IMG/VR virus record: IMGVR_UViG_2778261594_000011
Span: 1 to 7,586 of that record
Length of the DNA: 7,586 nucleotides
Direction: 5' to 3' (one strand)
Source of the DNA: a virus
Lineage: Duplodnaviria; Heunggongvirae; Uroviricota; Caudoviricetes
Shown here piece after piece: positions 1 to 7,586 of the stretch. How positions within the stretch are numbered: the first letter of the stretch is position 1; every line of letters starts with the position of its first letter. The notes under the pieces are model-generated. The model had not been told where the DNA came from, made no database searches, and saw only the letters and a program-made list of their open reading frames with translations. The translations under genes were made by a program, and so were the position numbers.

Positions 1-1158
1 ATGCCGAGAATAATCGAATTACGCCAGCAGAAAACCGCCATTAAAAATCAGATGCGCGACATGCTGGAGAACGCGGAAAAAGAAAACCGCAGCCTTAACG
101 ATGCTGAGGGCGCAAAATTTGACGAATTACGCGCTAAAGCTGAATCCCTCGATAAAGACATTTCCCGCCTTGAGGCCGTTGCAGACGAAGAGCGCAGCAA
201 GCCAGGTAAAAGCAGCCAGACCACTGACCCCGCCGAACTCCGCAACTACATTCTGACAGGTGAAACCCGCGCATTAAGTACAGGTGTCCCCGCTGATGGT
301 GGTTATACCGTTATCCCCGAACTGAACACCGAAATCATGCGAATGCTGGCGGACGAGTCCACGATGCGCCGCATCTGTACCGTGAAGAAAATCAGCAGCA
401 ACGAGTTTAAGCAGCTTGTTTCCGCTGGCGGTGCGACCGTTAACCACGGTGAAGAGGGTAAGGCACGCGAACAGACCAGCACCCCGCAGATTAACGAGGT
501 GAGCATCAAGCTGTATCCGGTATACGCCTATCCGCGCACCACACAGGAGATCGTTGATTTTTCCGATGTGGACATCCTTTCATGGCTGACGGGTGAGATT
601 GGCGACACCTTCACGGAAACCGAAGAAAGCGATCTGGTTGTGGGCGATGGTGACAAAAAAGCAAAAGGCTTTTTATCCGTACCCCGTGCAGAGAAGAACG
701 ACAAAGAGCGTGATTTTGGTACGTTGCAGGTAATTAAACCTTCCGAATCTCTGGCATGGACATCTGCGGACCCGCTGATCGACCTGAAATTTGCATTACG
801 TAAAAAATACCGCAAAAACGCGGTATGGGTGGTTAACTCCACGACGGCGGCAAAACTCCAGAAGGTGAAGAACGCGAACGGCGATTACATCTGGCGCGAC
901 CGTTTACAGGCGGGTGATCCTGATACGTTGCTGGGGCTTCCGGTGGAATATCTGGAATTTATGCCGGATAACGTTATCGCCCTGGGTGACTTCAAACGCG
1001 GTTATTACATCGTTGATCATGAAACGGGCGTGCGCACCAGACCGGACAACCTGACAGAGCCGGGCTTTATCAAAATTTTCACGCAGAAATATTTAGGCGG
1101 TGGCGTGGTGGATTCGAACGCGATCAAGATTCTGGAACTGCCGCAGGACGACGATTAA
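1..1158 (+). CDS. Major capsid protein, HK97 fold, with N-terminal coiled-coil delta (scaffold-like) domain
   Basis: 385-aa ORF. The N-terminal ~70 aa are charged and coiled-coil-like (ELRQQKTAIKNQMRDMLENAEKENRSLNDAEGAKFDELRAKAESLDKDISRLEA), typical of the HK97 gp5 delta domain; the rest has the HK97-family MCP pattern. A protease gene follows immediately. The ATG is at window position 1, so the true start and RBS cannot be checked. A strong terminator hairpin follows the stop. Confidence 0.85.
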   Translation: MPRIIELRQQKTAIKNQMRDMLENAEKENRSLNDAEGAKFDELRAKAESLDKDISRLEAVADEERSKPGKSSQTTDPAELRNYILTGETRALSTGVPADGGYTVIPELNTEIMRMLADESTMRRICTVKKISSNEFKQLVSAGGATVNHGEEGKAREQTSTPQINEVSIKLYPVYAYPRTTQEIVDFSDVDILSWLTGEIGDTFTETEESDLVVGDGDKKAKGFLSVPRAEKNDKERDFGTLQVIKPSESLAWTSADPLIDLKFALRKKYRKNAVWVVNSTTAAKLQKVKNANGDYIWRDRLQAGDPDTLLGLPVEYLEFMPDNVIALGDFKRGYYIVDHETGVRTRPDNLTEPGFIKIFTQKYLGGGVVDSNAIKILELPQDDD

Positions 1159-1164
1159 CAGCAC

Positions 1165-1197
1165 ACCGAAGGGGCTAAAAAGCCCCTTCTCTGTTTT
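1165..1197 (+). terminator. Rho-independent terminator-like hairpin after the capsid gene
   Basis: Stem GAAGGGGCT (1168-1176), loop AAAA, stem AGCCCCTTC (1181-1189), then the U-rich tract TCTGTTTT (1190-1197). It sits 7 nt after the capsid stop and before the protease RBS, so it is probably a partial terminator or attenuator. Confidence 0.6.
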
Positions 1198-1212
1198 ACA
1201 GGTGAAAAAATT

Positions 1213-1770
1213 ATGATGAGTATGGAAATCCGGTCATCGGAAATCACCACCAGCGGCAGCAACACGCTTACGGGCTACGTTGTTCGCTGGGATAACCTTT
1301 CAGAACTGTTATGGGGCGAATTTTACGAAAAATTCCAGCGAGGGGCGTTTACTGAATGGCTTGCGGCGGGTAATGACGTTCGCGGCCTGTATGAGCATGA
1401 CCACAGCATGTTACTGGGGCGTACCCGTTCCGGTACGCTGAAACTTGAGGAGGACGAAACAGGGTTACGCTTTGAACTGACCCCACCGGATACCAGCACA
1501 GGGCGGGATGTTATCGAACTGGTTAAACGTGGTGACATCTCGGGCATGAGTTTTGGCTTTCGTTCCCGTAAGGATGTATGGGATACAACAGTCGATCCAT
1601 GTGTGCGTACTGTACTGATAGCGGAACTGTACGAAATTACCGTCACATCCGTACCGGCTTACCCTGATTCCGGCGTGGAGCTGGCCCGACGTTCCCTGTA
1701 TGAACAGCACCCTGAAAAAATGCCTCGTGCGGATAATCGCCGCTGGTGGGCGGATTTAGCGGGGGTGTGA
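1213..1770 (+). CDS. Prohead maturation protease, HK97 family (peptidase S78)
   Basis: 185-aa ORF with the His motif LYEHDH and the Ser motif DISGMSFGF at the spacing expected for HK97 gp4-type proteases. RBS AGGTGA lies ~8 nt upstream. Three in-frame ATGs (1213, 1216, 1222) leave the exact start ambiguous. Confidence 0.85.
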   Translation: MMSMEIRSSEITTSGSNTLTGYVVRWDNLSELLWGEFYEKFQRGAFTEWLAAGNDVRGLYEHDHSMLLGRTRSGTLKLEEDETGLRFELTPPDTSTGRDVIELVKRGDISGMSFGFRSRKDVWDTTVDPCVRTVLIAELYEITVTSVPAYPDSGVELARRSLYEQHPEKMPRADNRRWWADLAGV

Positions 1771-1771
1771 T

Positions 1772-2983
1772 ATGTGGCCTTTCAGAAGAAAAAAAGAGCA
1801 TCGCAGCATAACGCTTGATGAATTTATGGCGCTGGCTGGCACGTCGAATACGGGGGCGGGTGAGTACGTATCATCGGGGACAGCAGAATCACTACCCGCC
1901 GTCATGAACGCCGTCGCGGTCATTTCTGAGGCGGTGGCTACTATGCCCTGTTACCTGTACCTGGTACGCAATGAGAAGGGGAAGGAGGCGCGGGAGTGGC
2001 TTGATTCTCATCCGGTCGATCACATTCTCAACGAGCGCCCGAACGCATGGCAGACCCCCTACCAGTTTAAGCGAATGATGATCCGCCACTGCCTGTTAAA
2101 CGGTAATGCTTATGCGGTGATTCAGTGGGGGCGTGATGGTTTTCCGGTGGCGCTGCATCCCTACCCGCCGCAGTCGGTGAACGTGGAGCAGACAGGGGAA
2201 CACAACTGGCGTTACTGCATCACTGACGCCTACACCGGAAACACCCGCAACTATCTCCCGTGGGAGGTTCTCCACCTTCGTTACTCCACGGATGACGGCT
2301 TTATGGGGCGCTCACCTGTAACCATCTGCCGCGAATCGCTGGGGCTTGGGCTGGCCCAACAACGCCACGGCGCGAGCGTGATGCGTGATGGCATGATGGC
2401 GGCAGGGGTTATCACGTCAGGCGAATGGCTGGACGGCGTGAAGGGCAAACAGGCATTAGCCGCACTGGAACGCTACAAAGGGGCCAGAAACGCCGGAAAA
2501 ACGCCCATTCTTGAAGGGGGTATGAGCTATCAGCAACTGGGCATGAGTAATCAGGATGCTGAATGGCTGGCCTCCCGTCGCTTCACCATTGAAGACATCG
2601 CCCGAATGTTCAACGTCTCGCCGATTTTTTTGCAGGAATACAGCAACAGCACCTACAGCAATTTCAGCGAGGCAAGCCGCGCATTTCTCACCATGACGAT
2701 GCGCCCGTGGCTGGCCAACTTTGAGCAGCAGATAAAAAACGCCTTACTGGTGGCCTCCCCTGTACCTGGTATCCGGTATCAGGTGGAGTTTGACAGCGCG
2801 GACCTGTTACGGGCCACACCTGGCGAACGCTTTGCCACCTATGAGCGCGGCATTAAATCCGGCGTTATGTGCCCGAACGAAGCCCGTGAACGTGAAGGAT
2901 TATCCCCGCGTGATGGTGGTGATGAGTTTAGCCAGGCCTGGAAACAGGAGGTCAAAATCAGCGAGGGAGACAAGCCGCAATGA
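1772..2983 (+). CDS. Portal protein, HK97 family
   Basis: 403-aa ORF with typical HK97-type portal sequence character (e.g. FTIEDIARMFNVSPIFL, acidic C-terminus). The start is 1 nt after the protease stop (GTGTGAtATG). Confidence 0.88.
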   Translation: MWPFRRKKEHRSITLDEFMALAGTSNTGAGEYVSSGTAESLPAVMNAVAVISEAVATMPCYLYLVRNEKGKEAREWLDSHPVDHILNERPNAWQTPYQFKRMMIRHCLLNGNAYAVIQWGRDGFPVALHPYPPQSVNVEQTGEHNWRYCITDAYTGNTRNYLPWEVLHLRYSTDDGFMGRSPVTICRESLGLGLAQQRHGASVMRDGMMAAGVITSGEWLDGVKGKQALAALERYKGARNAGKTPILEGGMSYQQLGMSNQDAEWLASRRFTIEDIARMFNVSPIFLQEYSNSTYSNFSEASRAFLTMTMRPWLANFEQQIKNALLVASPVPGIRYQVEFDSADLLRATPGERFATYERGIKSGVMCPNEAREREGLSPRDGGDEFSQAWKQEVKISEGDKPQ

Positions 2984-3318
2984 ATATAGGGCGACTTCGT
3001 GACAGGGTGACGGTTCAGACCCTGAAACAGTCCAGAGCCGTGACGGGGGAAATACTCCAGACGTGGGAGGACGGCCCCACACTCTGGGCGAGCGTGAACA
3101 TGGTGAGCAGCAAGGAGGCCATTTCATCGGGTGCAGAGCTGGCAATTGGTACCGTAAGGATCTGGATACGCTACCGGAAGGATATCAACGCCAGCAGCCG
3201 GATAAAGGTCAATACGGGGGCGATGGCGGGGCGCGTGCTGAATATCATCGGGCAGCCGCTGCCGGATGCAGCCATGACACGCCTTGAAATTCTTTGCCGT
3301 GAGGGCGCAGAAAAATGA
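2980..3318 (+). CDS. Head closure / head-tail joining protein (SPP1 gp16 / Phage_H_T_join-like)
   Basis: 112-aa ORF with the characteristic pattern RLRDRVTVQ ... W ... VNMVSSKEA ... VRIWIRYRKDI ... RI ... GR ... LEILCRE. The start overlaps the portal stop (ATGA). Confidence 0.75.
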   Translation: MNIGRLRDRVTVQTLKQSRAVTGEILQTWEDGPTLWASVNMVSSKEAISSGAELAIGTVRIWIRYRKDINASSRIKVNTGAMAGRVLNIIGQPLPDAAMTRLEILCREGAEK

Positions 3319-3608
3319 CAGAACTTATCACCCTGGAAGAAGTGAAACTCCATTGCCGCATCGATGGCGACGAGGAAGACCAGCTAATCAGCGGATACAT
3401 TGCCGCATCGCTTGAGGCGTGTCAGATACACATAGGCAGGCGCTTTGATGACGGGCTGGAGTTCACGCCAGCCATAAAGATTGGCTGCATGATGTTTATT
3501 GCTCACCTGTACGAGAATCGCCAGCTGGTCGCGGATAACACCAGAACACGCGTACCCCTGACGATAGGCGCACTCTGGACGGCTTACCGTGATGTGGGGG
3601 TGTACTGA
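3315..3608 (+). CDS. gp6-like head-tail connector protein
   Basis: 97-aa ORF with the N-terminal pattern LITLEEVKLHCRIDGDEEDQLISGYIAASLEACQ..GRRF typical of HK97 gp6-like connectors. ATGA overlap with the upstream gene. Confidence 0.75.
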   Translation: MTELITLEEVKLHCRIDGDEEDQLISGYIAASLEACQIHIGRRFDDGLEFTPAIKIGCMMFIAHLYENRQLVADNTRTRVPLTIGALWTAYRDVGVY

Positions 3609-4048
3609 TGCCGTGGCAACCGTTAAGGCGATGTACCGAACCAGGCTGCAACAGGCGCGTGAAGTCCGGCAAGTGTGAAGAGCACAGACGCAGCGCACGC
3701 CAGCAGCAGGACAGCCGGAGAGGCAGCAGCAGGGATCGAGGGTATACCAGGCAGTGGGAGAAATACCGCGCCATGTACCTTAATAAAAACCCGTTATGCG
3801 TGCGATGCCTTGAGAAGGGAATATATACGCCCGCCGTGGTGGTGGATCACATTATCCCCATCGATGGCGGTAATGATGTTCTGTTCTGGCCTGAATGGAA
3901 TCATCAGCCATTGTGTCAGGCGTGTCATAACCAGAAAACGAAATGGCTTGATCCGGCCACAAAAAACAAGCGTGCCGCTGGCGGATTCCGTGAGGAGGAA
4001 GAACGGGCAGCCAACCGCAATAACTGGATGTATGACGCTGATGAATGA
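3608..4048 (+). CDS. HNH endonuclease (terminase-associated, cos-packaging type)
   Basis: 146-aa ORF with a Cys-rich N-terminus (CTEPGCNRRVKSGKCEEH) and an HNH core (DHIIPIDGGNDV ... NHQPLCQACHNQKT). TGATG overlap with the upstream gene. It sits directly upstream of the terminase genes, as in HNH-dependent cos phages. Confidence 0.85.
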   Translation: MPWQPLRRCTEPGCNRRVKSGKCEEHRRSARQQQDSRRGSSRDRGYTRQWEKYRAMYLNKNPLCVRCLEKGIYTPAVVVDHIIPIDGGNDVLFWPEWNHQPLCQACHNQKTKWLDPATKNKRAAGGFREEEERAANRNNWMYDADE

Positions 4049-4214
4049 GCGGGAACAAAACCGTCTTATCCGTGGACTTATAAGGCAGCGTGACGCATGG
4101 AAGACACAGGAAACAGGGCATAAAAGCACAAAGGAAGCGCGAACAGGGCGCACCACAGCAACGCGATTAACTGACCGTGACCGCGAGGTGATGGAATGTT
4201 TCCGCAATCGCTGA

Positions 4215-4290
4215 TGATGCTGCCGGACGGGTGGGGGGGAGTTTTCAGGACAAACCCGCCCCCGTCCAGAACCGACCGCCTCCTCAAATT
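4215..4290. other. Candidate cos / terminase recognition region (GC-rich inverted repeat followed by an AT-rich tract)
   Basis: Inverted repeat GGACGGG (4226-4232) / CCCGTCC (4261-4267) flanking a G7 run and a C-rich run, followed by AT-rich sequence up to the terS start. It lies in the 289-bp HNH-terS intergenic gap, the position of cos in HK97-like genomes. Positional inference only. Confidence 0.25.
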
Positions 4291-4337
4291 TTTATGCACG
4301 GGAATTTTTTGAAAAATAATCTGGCGAAAAAATAAGC

Positions 4338-4694
4338 ATGGCAAGACCACCGAAAGCCCCCGCCTACCTGGATGATATCGCCGTGAAGCAGTGGCGGGAA
4401 AAATCGCGGCAGCTTGCGGAACGGGGAGACCTGACCCCCGCCGACTGGAGCAATCTGGAACTGTATTGTGTCAACTACTCCATTTACCGGAAAGCCGTTG
4501 CAGACCTTGCGGCGCGCGGGTTCAGCATTGTTAACAGTCAGGGCGGCGAGAGCAGAAACCCCGCATTAAGCGCAAAATCCGACGCTGAAAGAGTGATGAT
4601 AAAAATGGCCTCCTTGCTCGGTTTTGACCCGATAAGCCGCCGTAAAAATCCACCGGAAACAGAAGAAGAGGACGAGCTTGACCGCCTGGAATAA
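4338..4694 (+). CDS. terS: Terminase small subunit, P27 family
   Basis: 118-aa ORF with sequence character typical of P27-family TerS (KQWREKSRQLAERGDLTPADWSNLELYCVNYSIYRKA; acidic C-terminal tail EEEDELDRLE). It sits immediately upstream of, and overlaps, the large terminase gene. Confidence 0.8.
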   Translation: MARPPKAPAYLDDIAVKQWREKSRQLAERGDLTPADWSNLELYCVNYSIYRKAVADLAARGFSIVNSQGGESRNPALSAKSDAERVMIKMASLLGFDPISRRKNPPETEEEDELDRLE

Positions 4695-6339
4695 GTACGC
4701 AGAAGACGTAAAAACGGGCAAAATTCCGGCCTGTAAACGGCTGAAACAGGCCGTTAAACGGTACTTTTCGGACCTTGAAAGCCCCCTTTACACGTTCGAT
4801 CGTGAGGTTGTGGAGCGGTTTATTGCCTTTTCCAGGGTGTGCCCGCACGTAAAAGGGCCGATGCGTGGCAGACCCATTGAGCTGGAGCCGTGGCAGCAGT
4901 TCGCCTTTGCGTGCATCCTCGGCTTTAAGGTTAAGGCCACCGGACGGCGCAAATACACGAGCGCCTTTATCGAAGTGCCGCGCAAAAATGCGAAATCCAC
5001 GACCGCCGCGATTCTGGCTAACTGGTTTCTGATTATGGAGAACGGGCAGCAGGATATTTACACCGCAGCGGTGAGCCGTGACCAGGCGCGGATCGTTTTT
5101 GATGATGCGCGTCAGATGTGCCTTTTATCCCGACCGTTACGCAGGCGGGTGAATATTCAGGCCCACAAGGTGATGCACCCGAAAAGCAACAGCCTGTTAA
5201 AGCCGCTGGCAGCAAAAGCGGCAACCATCGAGGGAACAAACCCCAGCCTTTCCATCGTGGACGAATACCACCTACACCCCGATAACGGCGTTTATTCCGC
5301 GCTTGAGCTGGGGATGGGCGCACGTCCCGAAGGGCTGTTATTTGCCATTACCACATCGGGCAGTAACGTCGTTTCAACCTGTAAACAGCACTATGATTAT
5401 TGCTGCCAGATCCTGGACGGCGAAGAGGTCAACGATTCAATTTTTGTGCTGATTTACGAGCTGGACGACGAAAACGAGGTTGATGATCCGGCGATGTGGA
5501 TAAAGGCTAACCCTAACATCGATGTTTCCGTGGATCGTGAAAAACTGGCCTCAACCATCCAGAAAGCGCGGGGTATTCCGTCGCAATGGGTGGAGATGAT
5601 GACAAAGCGATTTAATATCTGGTGCCAGGGGGCTACCCCGTGGATGGGTAACGGCGCATGGGCTGAGTGTGCCGGAACGTTCACGGAGGAAGATTTACAC
5701 GGGCAGGAGTGTTACGCGGGGCTGGACTTATCATCAACCAGCGATATTTCCAGCGTGTGCTATGCCTTTCCGGTCGGTAAAAATATCATGCTGGTTTCCC
5801 GTCATTATCTGCCGGAGTTCCAGCTACAGAACCCCGCCAATAAAAACCGCGCTGTCTATCGCCAGTGGGCTAAAGCGGGCTGGATACGCACAACGCCAGG
5901 TGACTGCATTGATTACGACCGGATCAGAGATGACATCATGCAGGATGCGGAGAAATTTAATATCAGGCTGGTGGGCTTTGATACGTGGAACGCCACGCAT
6001 CTCAGGACGCAATTACAGGGGGCTGGTTTTGAGGTGGAGCCGTTCCCGCAAACCTACCTCAGATTCAGTCCGGCGGCGAAATCGTTCGAAGTTTTTGTTA
6101 ACCGCAGGGTGATTGTGCATCGTGGCGATCCGGTGTTGTCCTGGTCGATGAGTAACGTCGTGATGCAGAGTGACGCGAACGCCAATATCAAGCCGAACAA
6201 GAAAAAATCACCGAACAAGATAGACCCGAGCGTAGCGGCGCTGATGGCGTTTGGTACATTCCAGGCAGAGCATGAGGATTTTGCTTTTGATATAAGCGAC
6301 AGCCACCGCCAGAAACTGGAAGAATTTAGCGGGGTGTAA
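4678..6339 (+). CDS. terL: Terminase large subunit (ATPase + nuclease), Terminase_1 / HK97 gp2-like
   Basis: 553-aa ORF. Walker A-like IEVPRKNAKSTTAA and Walker B-like LSIVDEYH in the N-terminal ATPase domain, with an acidic-residue-rich C-terminal nuclease region. The ORF as drawn starts at a TTG (4678-4680), 17 nt inside the terS 3' end; the first in-frame ATG is ~61 codons downstream, after the conserved N-terminal W..Y..DV..GKI..C motif, so the non-ATG start is plausible but unproven. Confidence 0.88.
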   Translation: MTAWNKYAEDVKTGKIPACKRLKQAVKRYFSDLESPLYTFDREVVERFIAFSRVCPHVKGPMRGRPIELEPWQQFAFACILGFKVKATGRRKYTSAFIEVPRKNAKSTTAAILANWFLIMENGQQDIYTAAVSRDQARIVFDDARQMCLLSRPLRRRVNIQAHKVMHPKSNSLLKPLAAKAATIEGTNPSLSIVDEYHLHPDNGVYSALELGMGARPEGLLFAITTSGSNVVSTCKQHYDYCCQILDGEEVNDSIFVLIYELDDENEVDDPAMWIKANPNIDVSVDREKLASTIQKARGIPSQWVEMMTKRFNIWCQGATPWMGNGAWAECAGTFTEEDLHGQECYAGLDLSSTSDISSVCYAFPVGKNIMLVSRHYLPEFQLQNPANKNRAVYRQWAKAGWIRTTPGDCIDYDRIRDDIMQDAEKFNIRLVGFDTWNATHLRTQLQGAGFEVEPFPQTYLRFSPAAKSFEVFVNRRVIVHRGDPVLSWSMSNVVMQSDANANIKPNKKKSPNKIDPSVAALMAFGTFQAEHEDFAFDISDSHRQKLEEFSGV

Positions 6340-6352
6340 TGAGGTCAGCAGC

Positions 6353-6634
6353 ATGACAGAAGCCGAAATACTGCGATTAATCCGCCGCGTCTCTGGAATC
6401 AGCCAGCAGGCTGACGAACAGACCACGCAGCCGGACAGCGTGACAGCCGAAAATTATGCGCGTGTTGTTGCTGAGGTGATGCGCCGTGATGGTATCCAGC
6501 TTAATGATGCGGATATGCGCGACATACGGATCCGCGTTCTGGAAATGCTGGCCTACAATCGCCGCGTTGAACTGTATCGGGAGAAGGAGAAAATCACGTA
6601 TCACTGGAAGAAGCCGGAGCGGTTACGGCGGTAA
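6353..6634 (+). CDS. Hypothetical small protein (93 aa), last gene of the packaging operon
   Basis: ATG with a GAGGT RBS ~8 nt upstream, 13 nt after the terL stop. The protein is charged and Arg-rich with no motif I recognise. Coding status rests on ORF length, the RBS and operon context only. Confidence 0.5.
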   Translation: MTEAEILRLIRRVSGISQQADEQTTQPDSVTAENYARVVAEVMRRDGIQLNDADMRDIRIRVLEMLAYNRRVELYREKEKITYHWKKPERLRR

Positions 6635-6678
6635 CTTGTTGATTAAAAGGCGGCTCAATTCTGAGCTGGGTAGCTGAC

Positions 6679-6719
6679 GGCGGTAACTGTTTGATATTCC
6701 CGATAACGCAAAATTGCGC
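6679..6719. repeat. ~41-bp direct repeat, copy 1 (GGCGGTAACTGTTTGATATTCCCGATAACGCAAAATTGCGC)
   Basis: Direct sequence comparison with copy 2 at 6861-6904, which differs at a few positions. It contains the 17-bp motif gGTAACTnnTTGATATT and a short terminal palindrome (CGCAA-AA-TTGCG). Confidence 0.8.
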
Positions 6720-6774
6720 TGGCTACATCCCTCACATCTGAGGACTGTTAACCAGCAGGCCGGAATATATTCAC

Positions 6775-6797
6775 AAACTACGAAATTTTCGTAGTTT
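6775..6797. repeat. 23-bp near-perfect palindrome AAACTACGAAA-t-TTTCGTAGTTT (operator-like)
   Basis: 11-bp arms that are exact reverse complements around a single central base; located between the two ~41-bp direct repeats. Confidence 0.85.
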
Positions 6798-6860
6798 AAT
6801 TACTCGCCAGTTTATCGTTAACTAGTTGATATTTTCGGAAACCTCAATTTGAGGAAGTCG

Positions 6861-6904
6861 GCGCGGTAACTGTTTTATATTCCCGATAGCGCAAAAATGC
6901 GCGG
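6861..6904. repeat. ~41-bp direct repeat, copy 2 (GCGCGGTAACTGTTTTATATTCCCGATAGCGCAAAAATGCGCGG)
   Basis: Imperfect direct copy of 6679-6719. It is preceded by the palindrome CCTCAA-t-TTGAGG (6842-6854), which mirrors GCTCA-attc-TGAGC (6650-6663) ahead of copy 1. Related partial motifs occur at 6629-6645 (GGTAACTTGTTGATTAA) and 6820-6836 (GTTAACTAGTTGATATT). Confidence 0.8.
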
Positions 6905-6930
6905 TCGGGCAGAATGAGCACCACCTCAAT

Positions 6931-6966
6931 CGTGACGGAGAGTGACAACCAGTGACACACCGTGAC
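6931..6966. repeat. Four (C/A)GTGAC motifs at exact 10-bp spacing (helically phased iteron-like array)
   Basis: GTGAC at 6932, 6942, 6952 and 6962, followed by the palindrome ACGGTT-t-AACCGT (6973-6985). The reverse-complement motif GTCACT recurs at 7064-7069 and 7361-7366. Confidence 0.8.
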
Positions 6967-7019
6967 AAAAAGACGGTTTAACCGTTCATTAAAAATCGAC
7001 GTGATTTTGTGCTTTCCGG

Positions 7020-7038
7020 ATGACGTGGCCAACGTCAT
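7020..7038. repeat. Palindrome ATGACGT-ggcca-ACGTCAT
   Basis: 7-bp perfect inverted arms with a 5-bp spacer, followed by a T6 run; a related GACGTGAT lies at 7001-7010. Confidence 0.75.
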
Positions 7039-7354
7039 TTTTTAGCGAAAAATTCTGATTAAGGTCACTGGCTGAATGGTCATAATTACCACGCAGACCA
7101 TCGAGGCAACCATAGCGATCATCGTTACGGTTGGAGCTTTTCCGCCATTGGTGGAAAAGGTGCACATCTGGATCATCATTACGGTGATCAAGGGTATGTA
7201 AAACCCACCTGGCTGATTAAAGGTTAACCGGAAAAAAAATCCGGTAGCCCCGTTATGGGGATCCCCATATCGACAGCAACGCCTCCTTAAAATTACCCGC
7301 CTTTATATTTCTTGTGCCTATTTGTTCCACGTTGTTTCATACAGTGCACCGAAC

Positions 7355-7378
7355 GGTGTAGTCACTGGTGTAGTCATT
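7355..7378. repeat. Tandem 12-bp direct repeat GGTGTAGTCACT / GGTGTAGTCATT
   Basis: Two adjacent 12-mers differing at one base, ~75 bp from the putative element/host junction. Confidence 0.8.
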
Positions 7379-7421
7379 TTGCGAATTTTGGCACTTTCTC
7401 AGTGAAAATTGCTTAATTAAA

Positions 7422-7586
7422 TCAATGCACTATGCGGGATAAGTTATATATAACAGCAATAAATAATGCGAGAATAAACGGCACGATGATCTCGGCGGCA
7501 AAACGGATACCGCAGAGAATAATGACCAGCATTCCCAACATAATGACGATTTTTAGGCCATTGAGCGTGATGATCGGCTTTGCCAT
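7422..7586 (-). pseudogene. tqsA: 5' fragment of a tqsA (ydgG)-like AI-2 exporter gene, truncated after ~45 native codons
   Basis: The minus-strand ATG at 7584-7586 opens an ORF translating [45 protein letters not shown], which matches the TqsA N-terminus as I recall it, then continues IYNLSRIVH and stops at 7422-7424 (54 codons against ~344 aa for intact TqsA). The gene start is at the window edge, so the promoter and upstream region are not visible. Confidence 0.55.

Follow-up and report, generated by a model that had tools for sequence, protein, structure and literature searches.

In phage HK022, Roi reportedly binds DNA within its own gene beside a site for integration host factor (IHF), with IHF stabilizing the binding of Roi, as is said to have been found by Clerget and Boccard in 1996. 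In the RIB/RIP elements (BIME-1) of Escherichia coli, which are found in variable numbers at transcription-unit 3′ ends, an IHF site is flanked by repetitive extragenic palindromic (REP) palindromes, and sopC of the F plasmid consists of 12 repeats of 43 bp, each with an inverted repeat. Here we describe an arrangement comparable to these in a stretch of 7,586 nucleotides (the window; IMG/VR record IMGVR_UViG_2778261594_000011, positions 1 to 7,586), which, by sequence comparison, is the right half of an E. coli capsid-forming phage-inducible chromosomal island (cf-PICI) inserted in the host gene tqsA. Escherichia PICIs of both the capsid-forming and the classical kind carry, downstream of their last gene and in the untranslated tail, an array of ~45-bp units, each laid out as a box with the IHF consensus, a spacer of ~10 bp and a short palindrome that varies by allele. 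Our leading reading, held tentatively and at somewhat less than an even chance, is that the array is a dispensable, recombination-prone set of tandem cis-elements copying an IHF-box and palindrome site that lies inside roi/rha/ant genes of phages.

The window contains four units, which are listed here by position:

6632-6668, + strand: unit 0, box TAACTTGTTGATT (6632-6644) with GCTCA-attc-TGAGC (6653-6666)
6684-6718, + strand: unit 1, box TAACTGTTTGATA (6684-6696) with CGCAA-aa-TTGCG (6707-6718)
6819-6854, + strand: unit 2, box TAACTAGTTGATA (6819-6831) with CCTCAA-t-TTGAGG (6842-6854); nearest to the lambdoid roi internal site
6867-6902, + strand: unit 3, box TAACTGTTTTATA (6867-6879; 1 mismatch to the IHF consensus) with GCGCA-aaaa-TGCGC (6889-6902); 93% identical to unit 1

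The first-pass annotation of the window had described this region as four same-orientation copies of a 17-bp motif, partly embedded in larger direct repeats. A search with GGTAACTNNTTGATATT, allowing up to 3 mismatches, returned four matches, all on the + strand, at 6630-6646 (3 mismatches), 6682-6698 (0), 6817-6833 (1) and 6865-6881 (1), against a chance expectation of 0.12, and none of 200 shuffled sequences reached four. The number and orientation of the copies are thus confirmed, as are two of the positions, while the other two copies begin at 6630 and 6817, 1 and 3 nt away from where they had been placed. The larger direct repeat of ~41 bp was also recovered: 6680-6719 and 6863-6902 are 93% identical over 40 nt, and a third copy, at 6815-6854, shares 65%. 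The palindromes that had been noted all exist, although only CCTCAA-t-TTGAGG was correctly placed, GCTCA-attc-TGAGC having been assigned to 6650-6663. CGCAA-aa-TTGCG and GCGCA-aaaa-TGCGC lie at 6707-6718 and 6889-6902, respectively.

The palindromes do not, as had been proposed, precede the larger repeats; each box has its own palindrome 3′ of itself. The locus is therefore better parsed as four units of one kind, in which a box, TAACnnnYTGAT(A/T), is followed by a perfect palindrome of 5-7 bp centred 27.5-29 nt after the T of TAAC. Nor does the array lie just beyond terL, as a 93-aa open reading frame (ORF), here termed orf93, occupies 6353-6634 between the two. The array begins on the stop codon of this gene, whose TAA (6632-6634) also supplies the TAA with which the first box opens, and is separated from the attR core by 550-830 bp. 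The units differ from one another and their spacing runs from 43 to more than 300 bp, which bears out the earlier statement that the array is not CRISPR. A detector that requires a box and a palindrome of at least 5 bp at unit spacing finds 4 sites in the window and, as a control, 7 sites on both strands of 781 kb of shuffled sequence.

The resemblance to phage genes is not apparent at default stringency, at which blastn and tblastn searches of the tail and of orf93 against phage genomes gave no match, and the link to roi surfaced only through a plasmid search and relaxed E-values. Window positions 6826-6861 (unit 2) are identical at 33 of 36 nt (E = 2e-4) to genes annotated as 'DNA-binding protein Roi / anti-repressor' in HK620, HK75, HK140, HK633, N7, PA28, many Stx phages and Kapi1; ant/rha genes of the P1-like and D6 type contain this stretch as well. 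Over the whole of unit 2, 38 of 46 positions agree, by manual count, with the N7-type gene (L195), with the same box, spacer and palindrome. In a six-unit array from a related element, separate units match separate alleles of the roi gene class at the homologous position, the TTCGCC..GGCGAA unit matching a Stx2a-phage gene that adjoins cro and the AATTTCCACAG.CTGTGGAA unit matching a Stx1a-phage gene. The detector, applied to HK022, mEpX1, HK542, N7-type, P1-like and Stx2a-type genes, finds exactly one site in each, at the homologous place, and in 6 kb of the P-Q region of HK022 the sole exact IHF consensus is the site inside roi. Roi itself has been described as a DNA-binding protein, with reference to the 1996 study (PMC3430580, PMC4587872).

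Within the phage genes, the site runs opposite to the coding strand and falls in the 5′ part of the gene, in the segment encoding ...LPQIEVSERINNLG.... Its palindrome is kept even though the encoded residues vary (LPQIEV, LPPMEV, APMANF, PPALQH and FPQTVEI), and this retention of palindromy, but not of sequence, argues for a constraint beyond protein coding, at the level of DNA or RNA. One Stx1a-phage allele carries a perfect palindrome of 12 + 1 + 12 nt, CAATTTCCACAGtCTGTGGAAATTG. In the 933W, APSE-1 and Stx1a-type roi alleles the palindrome is likewise kept and the IHF box is absent. A palindrome of changing sequence at a single coding position is thus seen in roi/rha-family genes of lambdoid, P1-like and even APSE phages (L198, ~1205-1229; L195, 2512-2524; L194, 2512-2524; L196, the HK022 sequence, 3765-3831).

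The satellite array and the roi-internal IHF/Roi region of HK022 and other lambdoid phages are therefore alike in box, ~10-bp spacer, palindrome and spacing. Unit 2 is nearly identical to the N7/HK620/HK140-type site, and other units of the family match other alleles. However, the phage site is single, lies inside a coding sequence and is antisense to the satellite orientation, whereas the array is non-coding, is present in 0-6 copies with several allele types side by side, and belongs to an element whose annotation holds no roi-like gene. These features, namely the array form, the non-coding location, the mix of allele types and the lack of a roi gene in the element, are new.

The box reads as the IHF consensus YAANNNNYTGATW, the opposite strand reading WATCARNNNNTTR. 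Only three exact matches to WATCARNNNNTTR occur in the 7.6-kb window, and all three are boxes, one in each of three of the four units; in the wider family, 45 of 65 unique units hold the exact consensus. The invariant TAA and TGA of the box correspond to the TTA and TCA of the IHF consensus, although their invariance must be read with the fact that the detector required them. From box to palindrome, a unit spans ~35 bp, which approximates the extent of a single IHF footprint. We infer that the boxes are probably bound by host IHF, which bends DNA. The IHF sites of lambda attP (H1, H2 and H′) and cosB (I1) have the same consensus and an A/T-rich stretch within the ~35-bp footprint, and the centres of the unit palindromes are mostly, though not always, A/T-only (CAAAATTG, CAATTTG and similar). 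Unlike the lambda sites, the units do not lie beside an att core or cosN and are not fixed in number or spacing, and their A/T-rich centre is, by estimate, ~4 bp further out than the A-tract of H′.

Comparison with the other described systems yields a partial likeness in each case. The units resemble RIB/RIP elements in combining an IHF consensus with palindromes in short repeated modules, in their position at transcription-unit 3′ ends and in their varying copy number. Yet no REP consensus is visible in them, their palindromes are of 5-7 bp rather than ~35 nt, and they are not dispersed but confined, in one orientation, to one locus of one family of mobile elements. With sopC of F or crr of P4, the array shares tandem units of ~45 bp that each hold a short inverted repeat; it differs in that its palindromes change from unit to unit, there are no partition genes and there is no co-variation with Rep type. 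This variation of the palindromes within an array makes it unlikely that one dimeric protein binds all of the units.

To follow the units through related elements, we collected 80 loci from viral contigs that encode relatives of orf93, as well as 105 loci that fit a stringent pattern of the unit. Across ~190 related loci, the units are found almost exclusively at this place and on this strand. In the 80 loci, the detector found 117 sites on the + strand downstream of orf93 versus 3 upstream, and on the minus strand a single host-flank site, which recurs in 6 loci. Conversely, 93 of the 105 viral contigs with the stringent pattern also encode orf93. In 45 of 48 unique units, the distance from TAAC to the centre of the palindrome (at least 5 bp) is 28.5-30 nt; the register of the palindrome shifts by half a base pair between unit types, and direct counts were therefore used in place of a covariance model. 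At least 12 unrelated palindrome sequences occur, for example TTCGCCagcGGCGAA, TCCCCCAtTGGGGGA, CAGCCaacGGCTG, TGCAAATTTGCA, GCCCAaaaaTGGGT and AATTTCCACtgactGTGGAAATT. The box is far more constant than the palindrome, and the consensus of the unit is TAACynGyTGATATTyyCGrAAA. Neighbouring units are most often 48 bp apart, within a range of 44-55 bp, and helical phasing of the units was rejected on this spread.

The number of units per element ranges from 0 to 6. While the unit family is kept in most homologous elements, 8 of the 49 with a complete tail (16%) have no unit. Arrays are found behind terL in cf-PICIs, behind rpp in classical PICIs such as EcCICFT073, and behind neither, and members of one unit family are found whether the att site of the element lies in tqsA or in phoQ. 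The array is thus element DNA, which settles the earlier concern that the segment might be host intergenic DNA, and it is dispensable. It travels with orf93 whatever the packaging module (terL, rpp or neither), and it is independent of the integrase, replication and packaging modules. Three loci (L008, L010 and L016) equal the window minus 6690-6873, with the crossover inside GGTAACTGTTT, between the two 41-bp repeats. An array this variable may be useful as a typing marker for these elements. Some part of the 391-bp segment is matched in 1418 of 5426 complete genomes, most of these matches being partial.

These observations agree with the general part of the first-pass annotation, in which the array was regarded as a multi-site protein-binding region, in that the boxes carry the exact IHF consensus and the units copy phage sites; the candidates that it named, which were arm-type sites, an origin and a packaging locus, are not sustained (see below). 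In the reading that we favour, in which the units copy the roi/rha/ant-internal site, host IHF would bind the boxes and bend the DNA, and Roi-type proteins, supplied by phages that are co-resident or infect the cell, might recognize the adjoining palindromes. The satellite would thereby display a battery of such sites, and the array would modulate or titrate factors in a role that is modulatory and not needed for integration, replication or encapsidation. More broadly, the satellite tail consists largely of copies of palindrome-bearing cis-elements that phages keep inside antirepressor-type genes, the roi site being the commonest. Satellites are thereby connected in a concrete way with host IHF and with phage DNA-binding proteins of a class that is still little understood.

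Several points weigh against this reading. A consensus match is not proof of IHF occupancy, the IHF sites being predicted ones, and 20 of the 65 unit variants break the consensus at GAT (TGAA, TGAG or TAAT). Units 1 and 3 of the window, the 'A-type' (CGCAAaaTTGCG / GCGCAaaaaTGCGC), have no phage counterpart by blastn. For HK022 roi, the precise placement of the Roi-binding and IHF-binding sites is a presumed one. The elements with complete tails but no unit, together with the variation in copy number and spacing, also count here, and the variable number and unphased spacing exclude a precise architectural role. The whole tail is, in addition, rich in other short palindromes that have no box. 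Lastly, HK106, the helper published for the prototype cf-PICI (L205, record 28000-40000), lacks roi in its lambda-like nin region, and the 12 kb examined contain nothing that resembles a unit. Lambda likewise is not known to carry roi there. Roi therefore cannot be required for induction or mobilization, and Roi as the inducing signal of the helper was rejected on the HK106 result.

A more specific form of the proposal is that the array is a DNA decoy battery, in which operator-like sites collected from within many different roi/antirepressor-type genes, each an IHF box with an allele-specific palindrome, would be amplified upon satellite replication and would titrate or sense these phage DNA-binding proteins. 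We regard this as quite unlikely. Were it true, the lytic timing of co-resident or invading lambdoid phages would be shifted, and the conflict between satellites and phages would include a previously undescribed form, based on the mimicry of sites.

The variation in the array also bears on whether the tail has any sequence-specific function at all. It could instead be the debris of repeated recombination with antirepressor/roi-type genes, in which palindromes served as breakpoints and units were amplified and deleted by unequal crossing-over, the result being tolerated or serving as filler that adjusts length for cos packaging. The dispensability of the array, its varying copy number, down to none in 16% of elements, the occurrence of hybrid units and degenerate boxes, and the clean deletion between the 41-bp repeats in three loci are all as this would predict. 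Furthermore, the tail (6600-7450 and its relatives) is a mosaic of short perfect palindromes, with 248 unique contexts in 74 tails, of which ~70 have a box, and it contains a second module that is a fragment of a different antirepressor gene family:

6775-6797, + strand: palindromic module AAACTACGAAA-t-TTTCGTAGTTT (AAACTACGAAATTTTCGTAGTTT), matching the segment of antirepressor (KilAC / Roi-like) genes that encodes LNYENFVV

This module matches Hafnia phage sequence at 26 of 26 positions, Klebsiella phages at 24 of 24 and Salmonella phages at ~31 of 34. However, gene decay would leave collinear pieces of one gene, whereas the arrays hold as many as six copies of one ~45-bp segment, drawn from different alleles, in one orientation and with fixed boundaries. 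The box is well conserved while the neighbouring sequence turns over, and 500-1000 bp of non-coding DNA are kept in most members of a size-constrained element. On balance, we consider it unlikely that the tail is debris of this kind, though the likelihood is not negligible.

A second set of explanations places the function of the units in RNA. They might form stem-loops in the 3′ untranslated tail of the operon that stabilize the 3′ end of the mRNA, or act on the opposite strand as weak terminators or insulators that block read-through of tqsA or phoQ transcription, the box then being a processing or protein-binding motif. The position of the array, between the orf93 stop codon and a hairpin with a T-tract, is suggestive in this respect:

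7021-7047, + strand: terminator-like hairpin, ATGACGT-ggcca-ACGTCAT followed by T6, predicted by folding and found in most variants

Use of this terminator would place the array within the untranslated 3′ part of the operon transcript. The single orientation of all units and the palindromy that persists as sequence changes are also compatible with a role in RNA, and within true units the internal mismatches, read on the + strand, comprise 5 G:T versus 0 A:C, which are too few to decide. On the minus strand, TTT or TTA follows each hairpin (positions 21-23 of the unit are A-rich), and the host genes at both insertion sites studied, tqsA and phoQ, are transcribed toward the right end of the element; a canonical terminator also directly follows the short orf93 relative of a Klebsiella cf-PICI. 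Yet a terminator scan predicts none in 6629-6905 on either strand, the hairpins of individual units have low predicted stability (-5 to -9 kcal/mol), which does not exceed that of shuffled sequences, and the flanking mismatches have no strand bias (7 G:T versus 7 A:C). An Rfam scan of 3900-7586 at E <= 1 gave no match. Conservation is greater in the linear box than in the stems, which points to recognition by sequence, and the same unit lies antisense inside phage coding sequences. For these reasons, a function of the units in RNA appears improbable, though it deserves weight. Two related candidates were discarded. For lambda nut-like boxA/boxB elements, inspection by eye showed no boxA consensus and unconserved loops, and an immunity-RNA target of the P4 seqA-like kind would need a complementary copy of the box, of which there is none elsewhere in the element.

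If the array is instead read as DNA, the role first proposed for it was that of integrase or excisionase arm-type sites of attP, and a set of direct repeats that lies in non-coding DNA, beyond the last gene on the side facing att, would fit such a role. Arm-type sites usually flank attP on both sides, but the motif is absent from the left end of the element, where the search suggested earlier found no copy with up to 3 mismatches. The units lie 550-830 bp from the core, where such sites would be expected within ~150-200 bp on both arms, their copy number is not fixed, and the array is common to elements at tqsA and at phoQ. Furthermore, another motif is the likelier candidate for the role:

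7355-7376, + strand: doubled GGTGTAGTCA motif, likely integrase arm-type site
7450-7458: att identity block ATAACAGCA, attR, inside the host gene tqsA

The doubled GGTGTAGTCA motif (GGTGTAGTCAnnGGTGTAGTCA) is found on both sides of att, at ~-90 and ~+142, its second copy lying just upstream of int at L001 1497-1518 (window coordinates equal L001 coordinates minus 9441), and both copies are embedded in a ~70-bp direct repeat. In related, helper-embedded PICIs, a doubled motif is found at -81/+132 of att (PMC10111431). The doubled motif thus occupies both arms at the published geometry and is likely the integrase arm-type site, and a role of the array in this capacity is most improbable.

The clustering of direct repeats near terS and terL had similarly suggested an iteron-type origin or a terminase (cos/pac) recognition site. 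In Gram-negative PICIs, the origin consists of two iteron sets around an AT-rich stretch 3′ of rep, as shown for EcCICFT073 (PMC6092414). Two sets of AAAAGTGGGG iterons, which are unlike the motif of the array, flank an AT-rich stretch 3′ of rep in the present element, at L001 7690-7895 and thus outside the window. With regard to packaging, EcCICFT073 has two lambda-type cosN that flank rpp (L005 7937 and 8676), while its array is downstream of orf93, and, as noted above, arrays accompany terL, rpp or neither. No lambda-type cosN was found in L001. A lambda-like cosN within the array was rejected as well, since it is only in unit 0 that GGTTACGGCGGTAAC resembles the lambda cos junction, and the cosN of EcCICFT073 are elsewhere. 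A better cos candidate is 4215-4337, between the small ORF after the HNH endonuclease gene and terS, where an A/T-rich stretch comes after a G-rich inverted repeat (GGACGGGTGGGGGGG ... CCCGCCCCCCGTCC); the linear record of the Klebsiella cf-PICI vB_KppS-Ant, which derives from virions, has both of its ends at the homologous position. From its sequence, 4215-4337 is likely the cos site of this cf-PICI, and an origin or packaging function of the array is very doubtful.

The gene that accompanies the array is the last of the rightward operon:

6353-6634, + strand: orf93, 93 aa, with a match to phrog_1561, a family of unknown function

The orf93 family is small, with 37 representatives at 50% identity, and is present both in cf-PICIs and in the classical PICI EcCICFT073. 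The protein has no Pfam hit and no sequence relative in the PDB. Its AlphaFold2 model is a three-helix bundle (pLDDT 72) that has no significant fold match in the PDB. The protein was considered as the binding partner of the array and rejected, as it has neither a recognizable domain nor a fold match and some elements with orf93 have no array. In L013, a 9-bp duplication (GGTTACGGC) is found at the end of orf93. In the Klebsiella cf-PICI vB_KppS-Ant (L193 4598-4786), the last gene encodes a short, 62-aa orf93 relative that ends in YQWRKPERPR, where orf93 ends in YHWKKPERLRR; the canonical terminator is directly 3′ of it, a doubled TGTATAAACA lies on both sides of att, and there is no unit array.

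Neither the array nor the right-hand non-coding tail of 0.5-1 kb is described or mapped in the literature searched. The tail has one further repeat, directly 3′ of the array:

6932-6966, + strand: four GTGAC direct repeats at a spacing of 10-11 bp

These repeats lie ~490-520 bp from att, are kept in 7 of the 8 unit-less elements and are missing from many unit-bearing ones; they resemble a cooperative binding array, perhaps for excisionase or an AlpA-like protein. The adjoining block, 6970-7050, is found in nearly all variants and contains a small hairpin, ACGGTTTAACCGT, in addition to the terminator-like hairpin with T6. It could be the operon terminator or a small RNA.

Upstream of orf93, the window is occupied by a head and terminase module:

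1-1158: major capsid protein, from the ORF call
following the capsid gene, in order: prohead protease, portal protein, head-closure protein, connector and HNH endonuclease
4338-4694: P27-family small terminase (terS)
4678-6339: large terminase (terL)

Several E. coli chromosomes share the terminal 860 bp of the window at 99.9% identity. In E. coli O43 RM10042, the matching region is the right end of a ~15.5-kb element inserted in tqsA, whose genes run in the order integrase, AlpA-type regulator, RepA-family helicase, SSB and PerC, followed by the head/terminase module. This organization matches that of a cf-PICI as described for EcCIEDL933 (bioRxiv 10.1101/2022.09.08.507074). PICIs and cf-PICIs are common in E. 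coli and are vehicles for virulence and defence genes.

Chi (GCTGGTGG) occurs three times in the window, at 1247-1254 (- strand), 1742-1749 (+ strand) and 5967-5974 (+ strand), where 0.25 occurrences would be expected, and in some other arrays (the tails of L043, L048 and L070) it is also found directly 3′ of unit palindromes.

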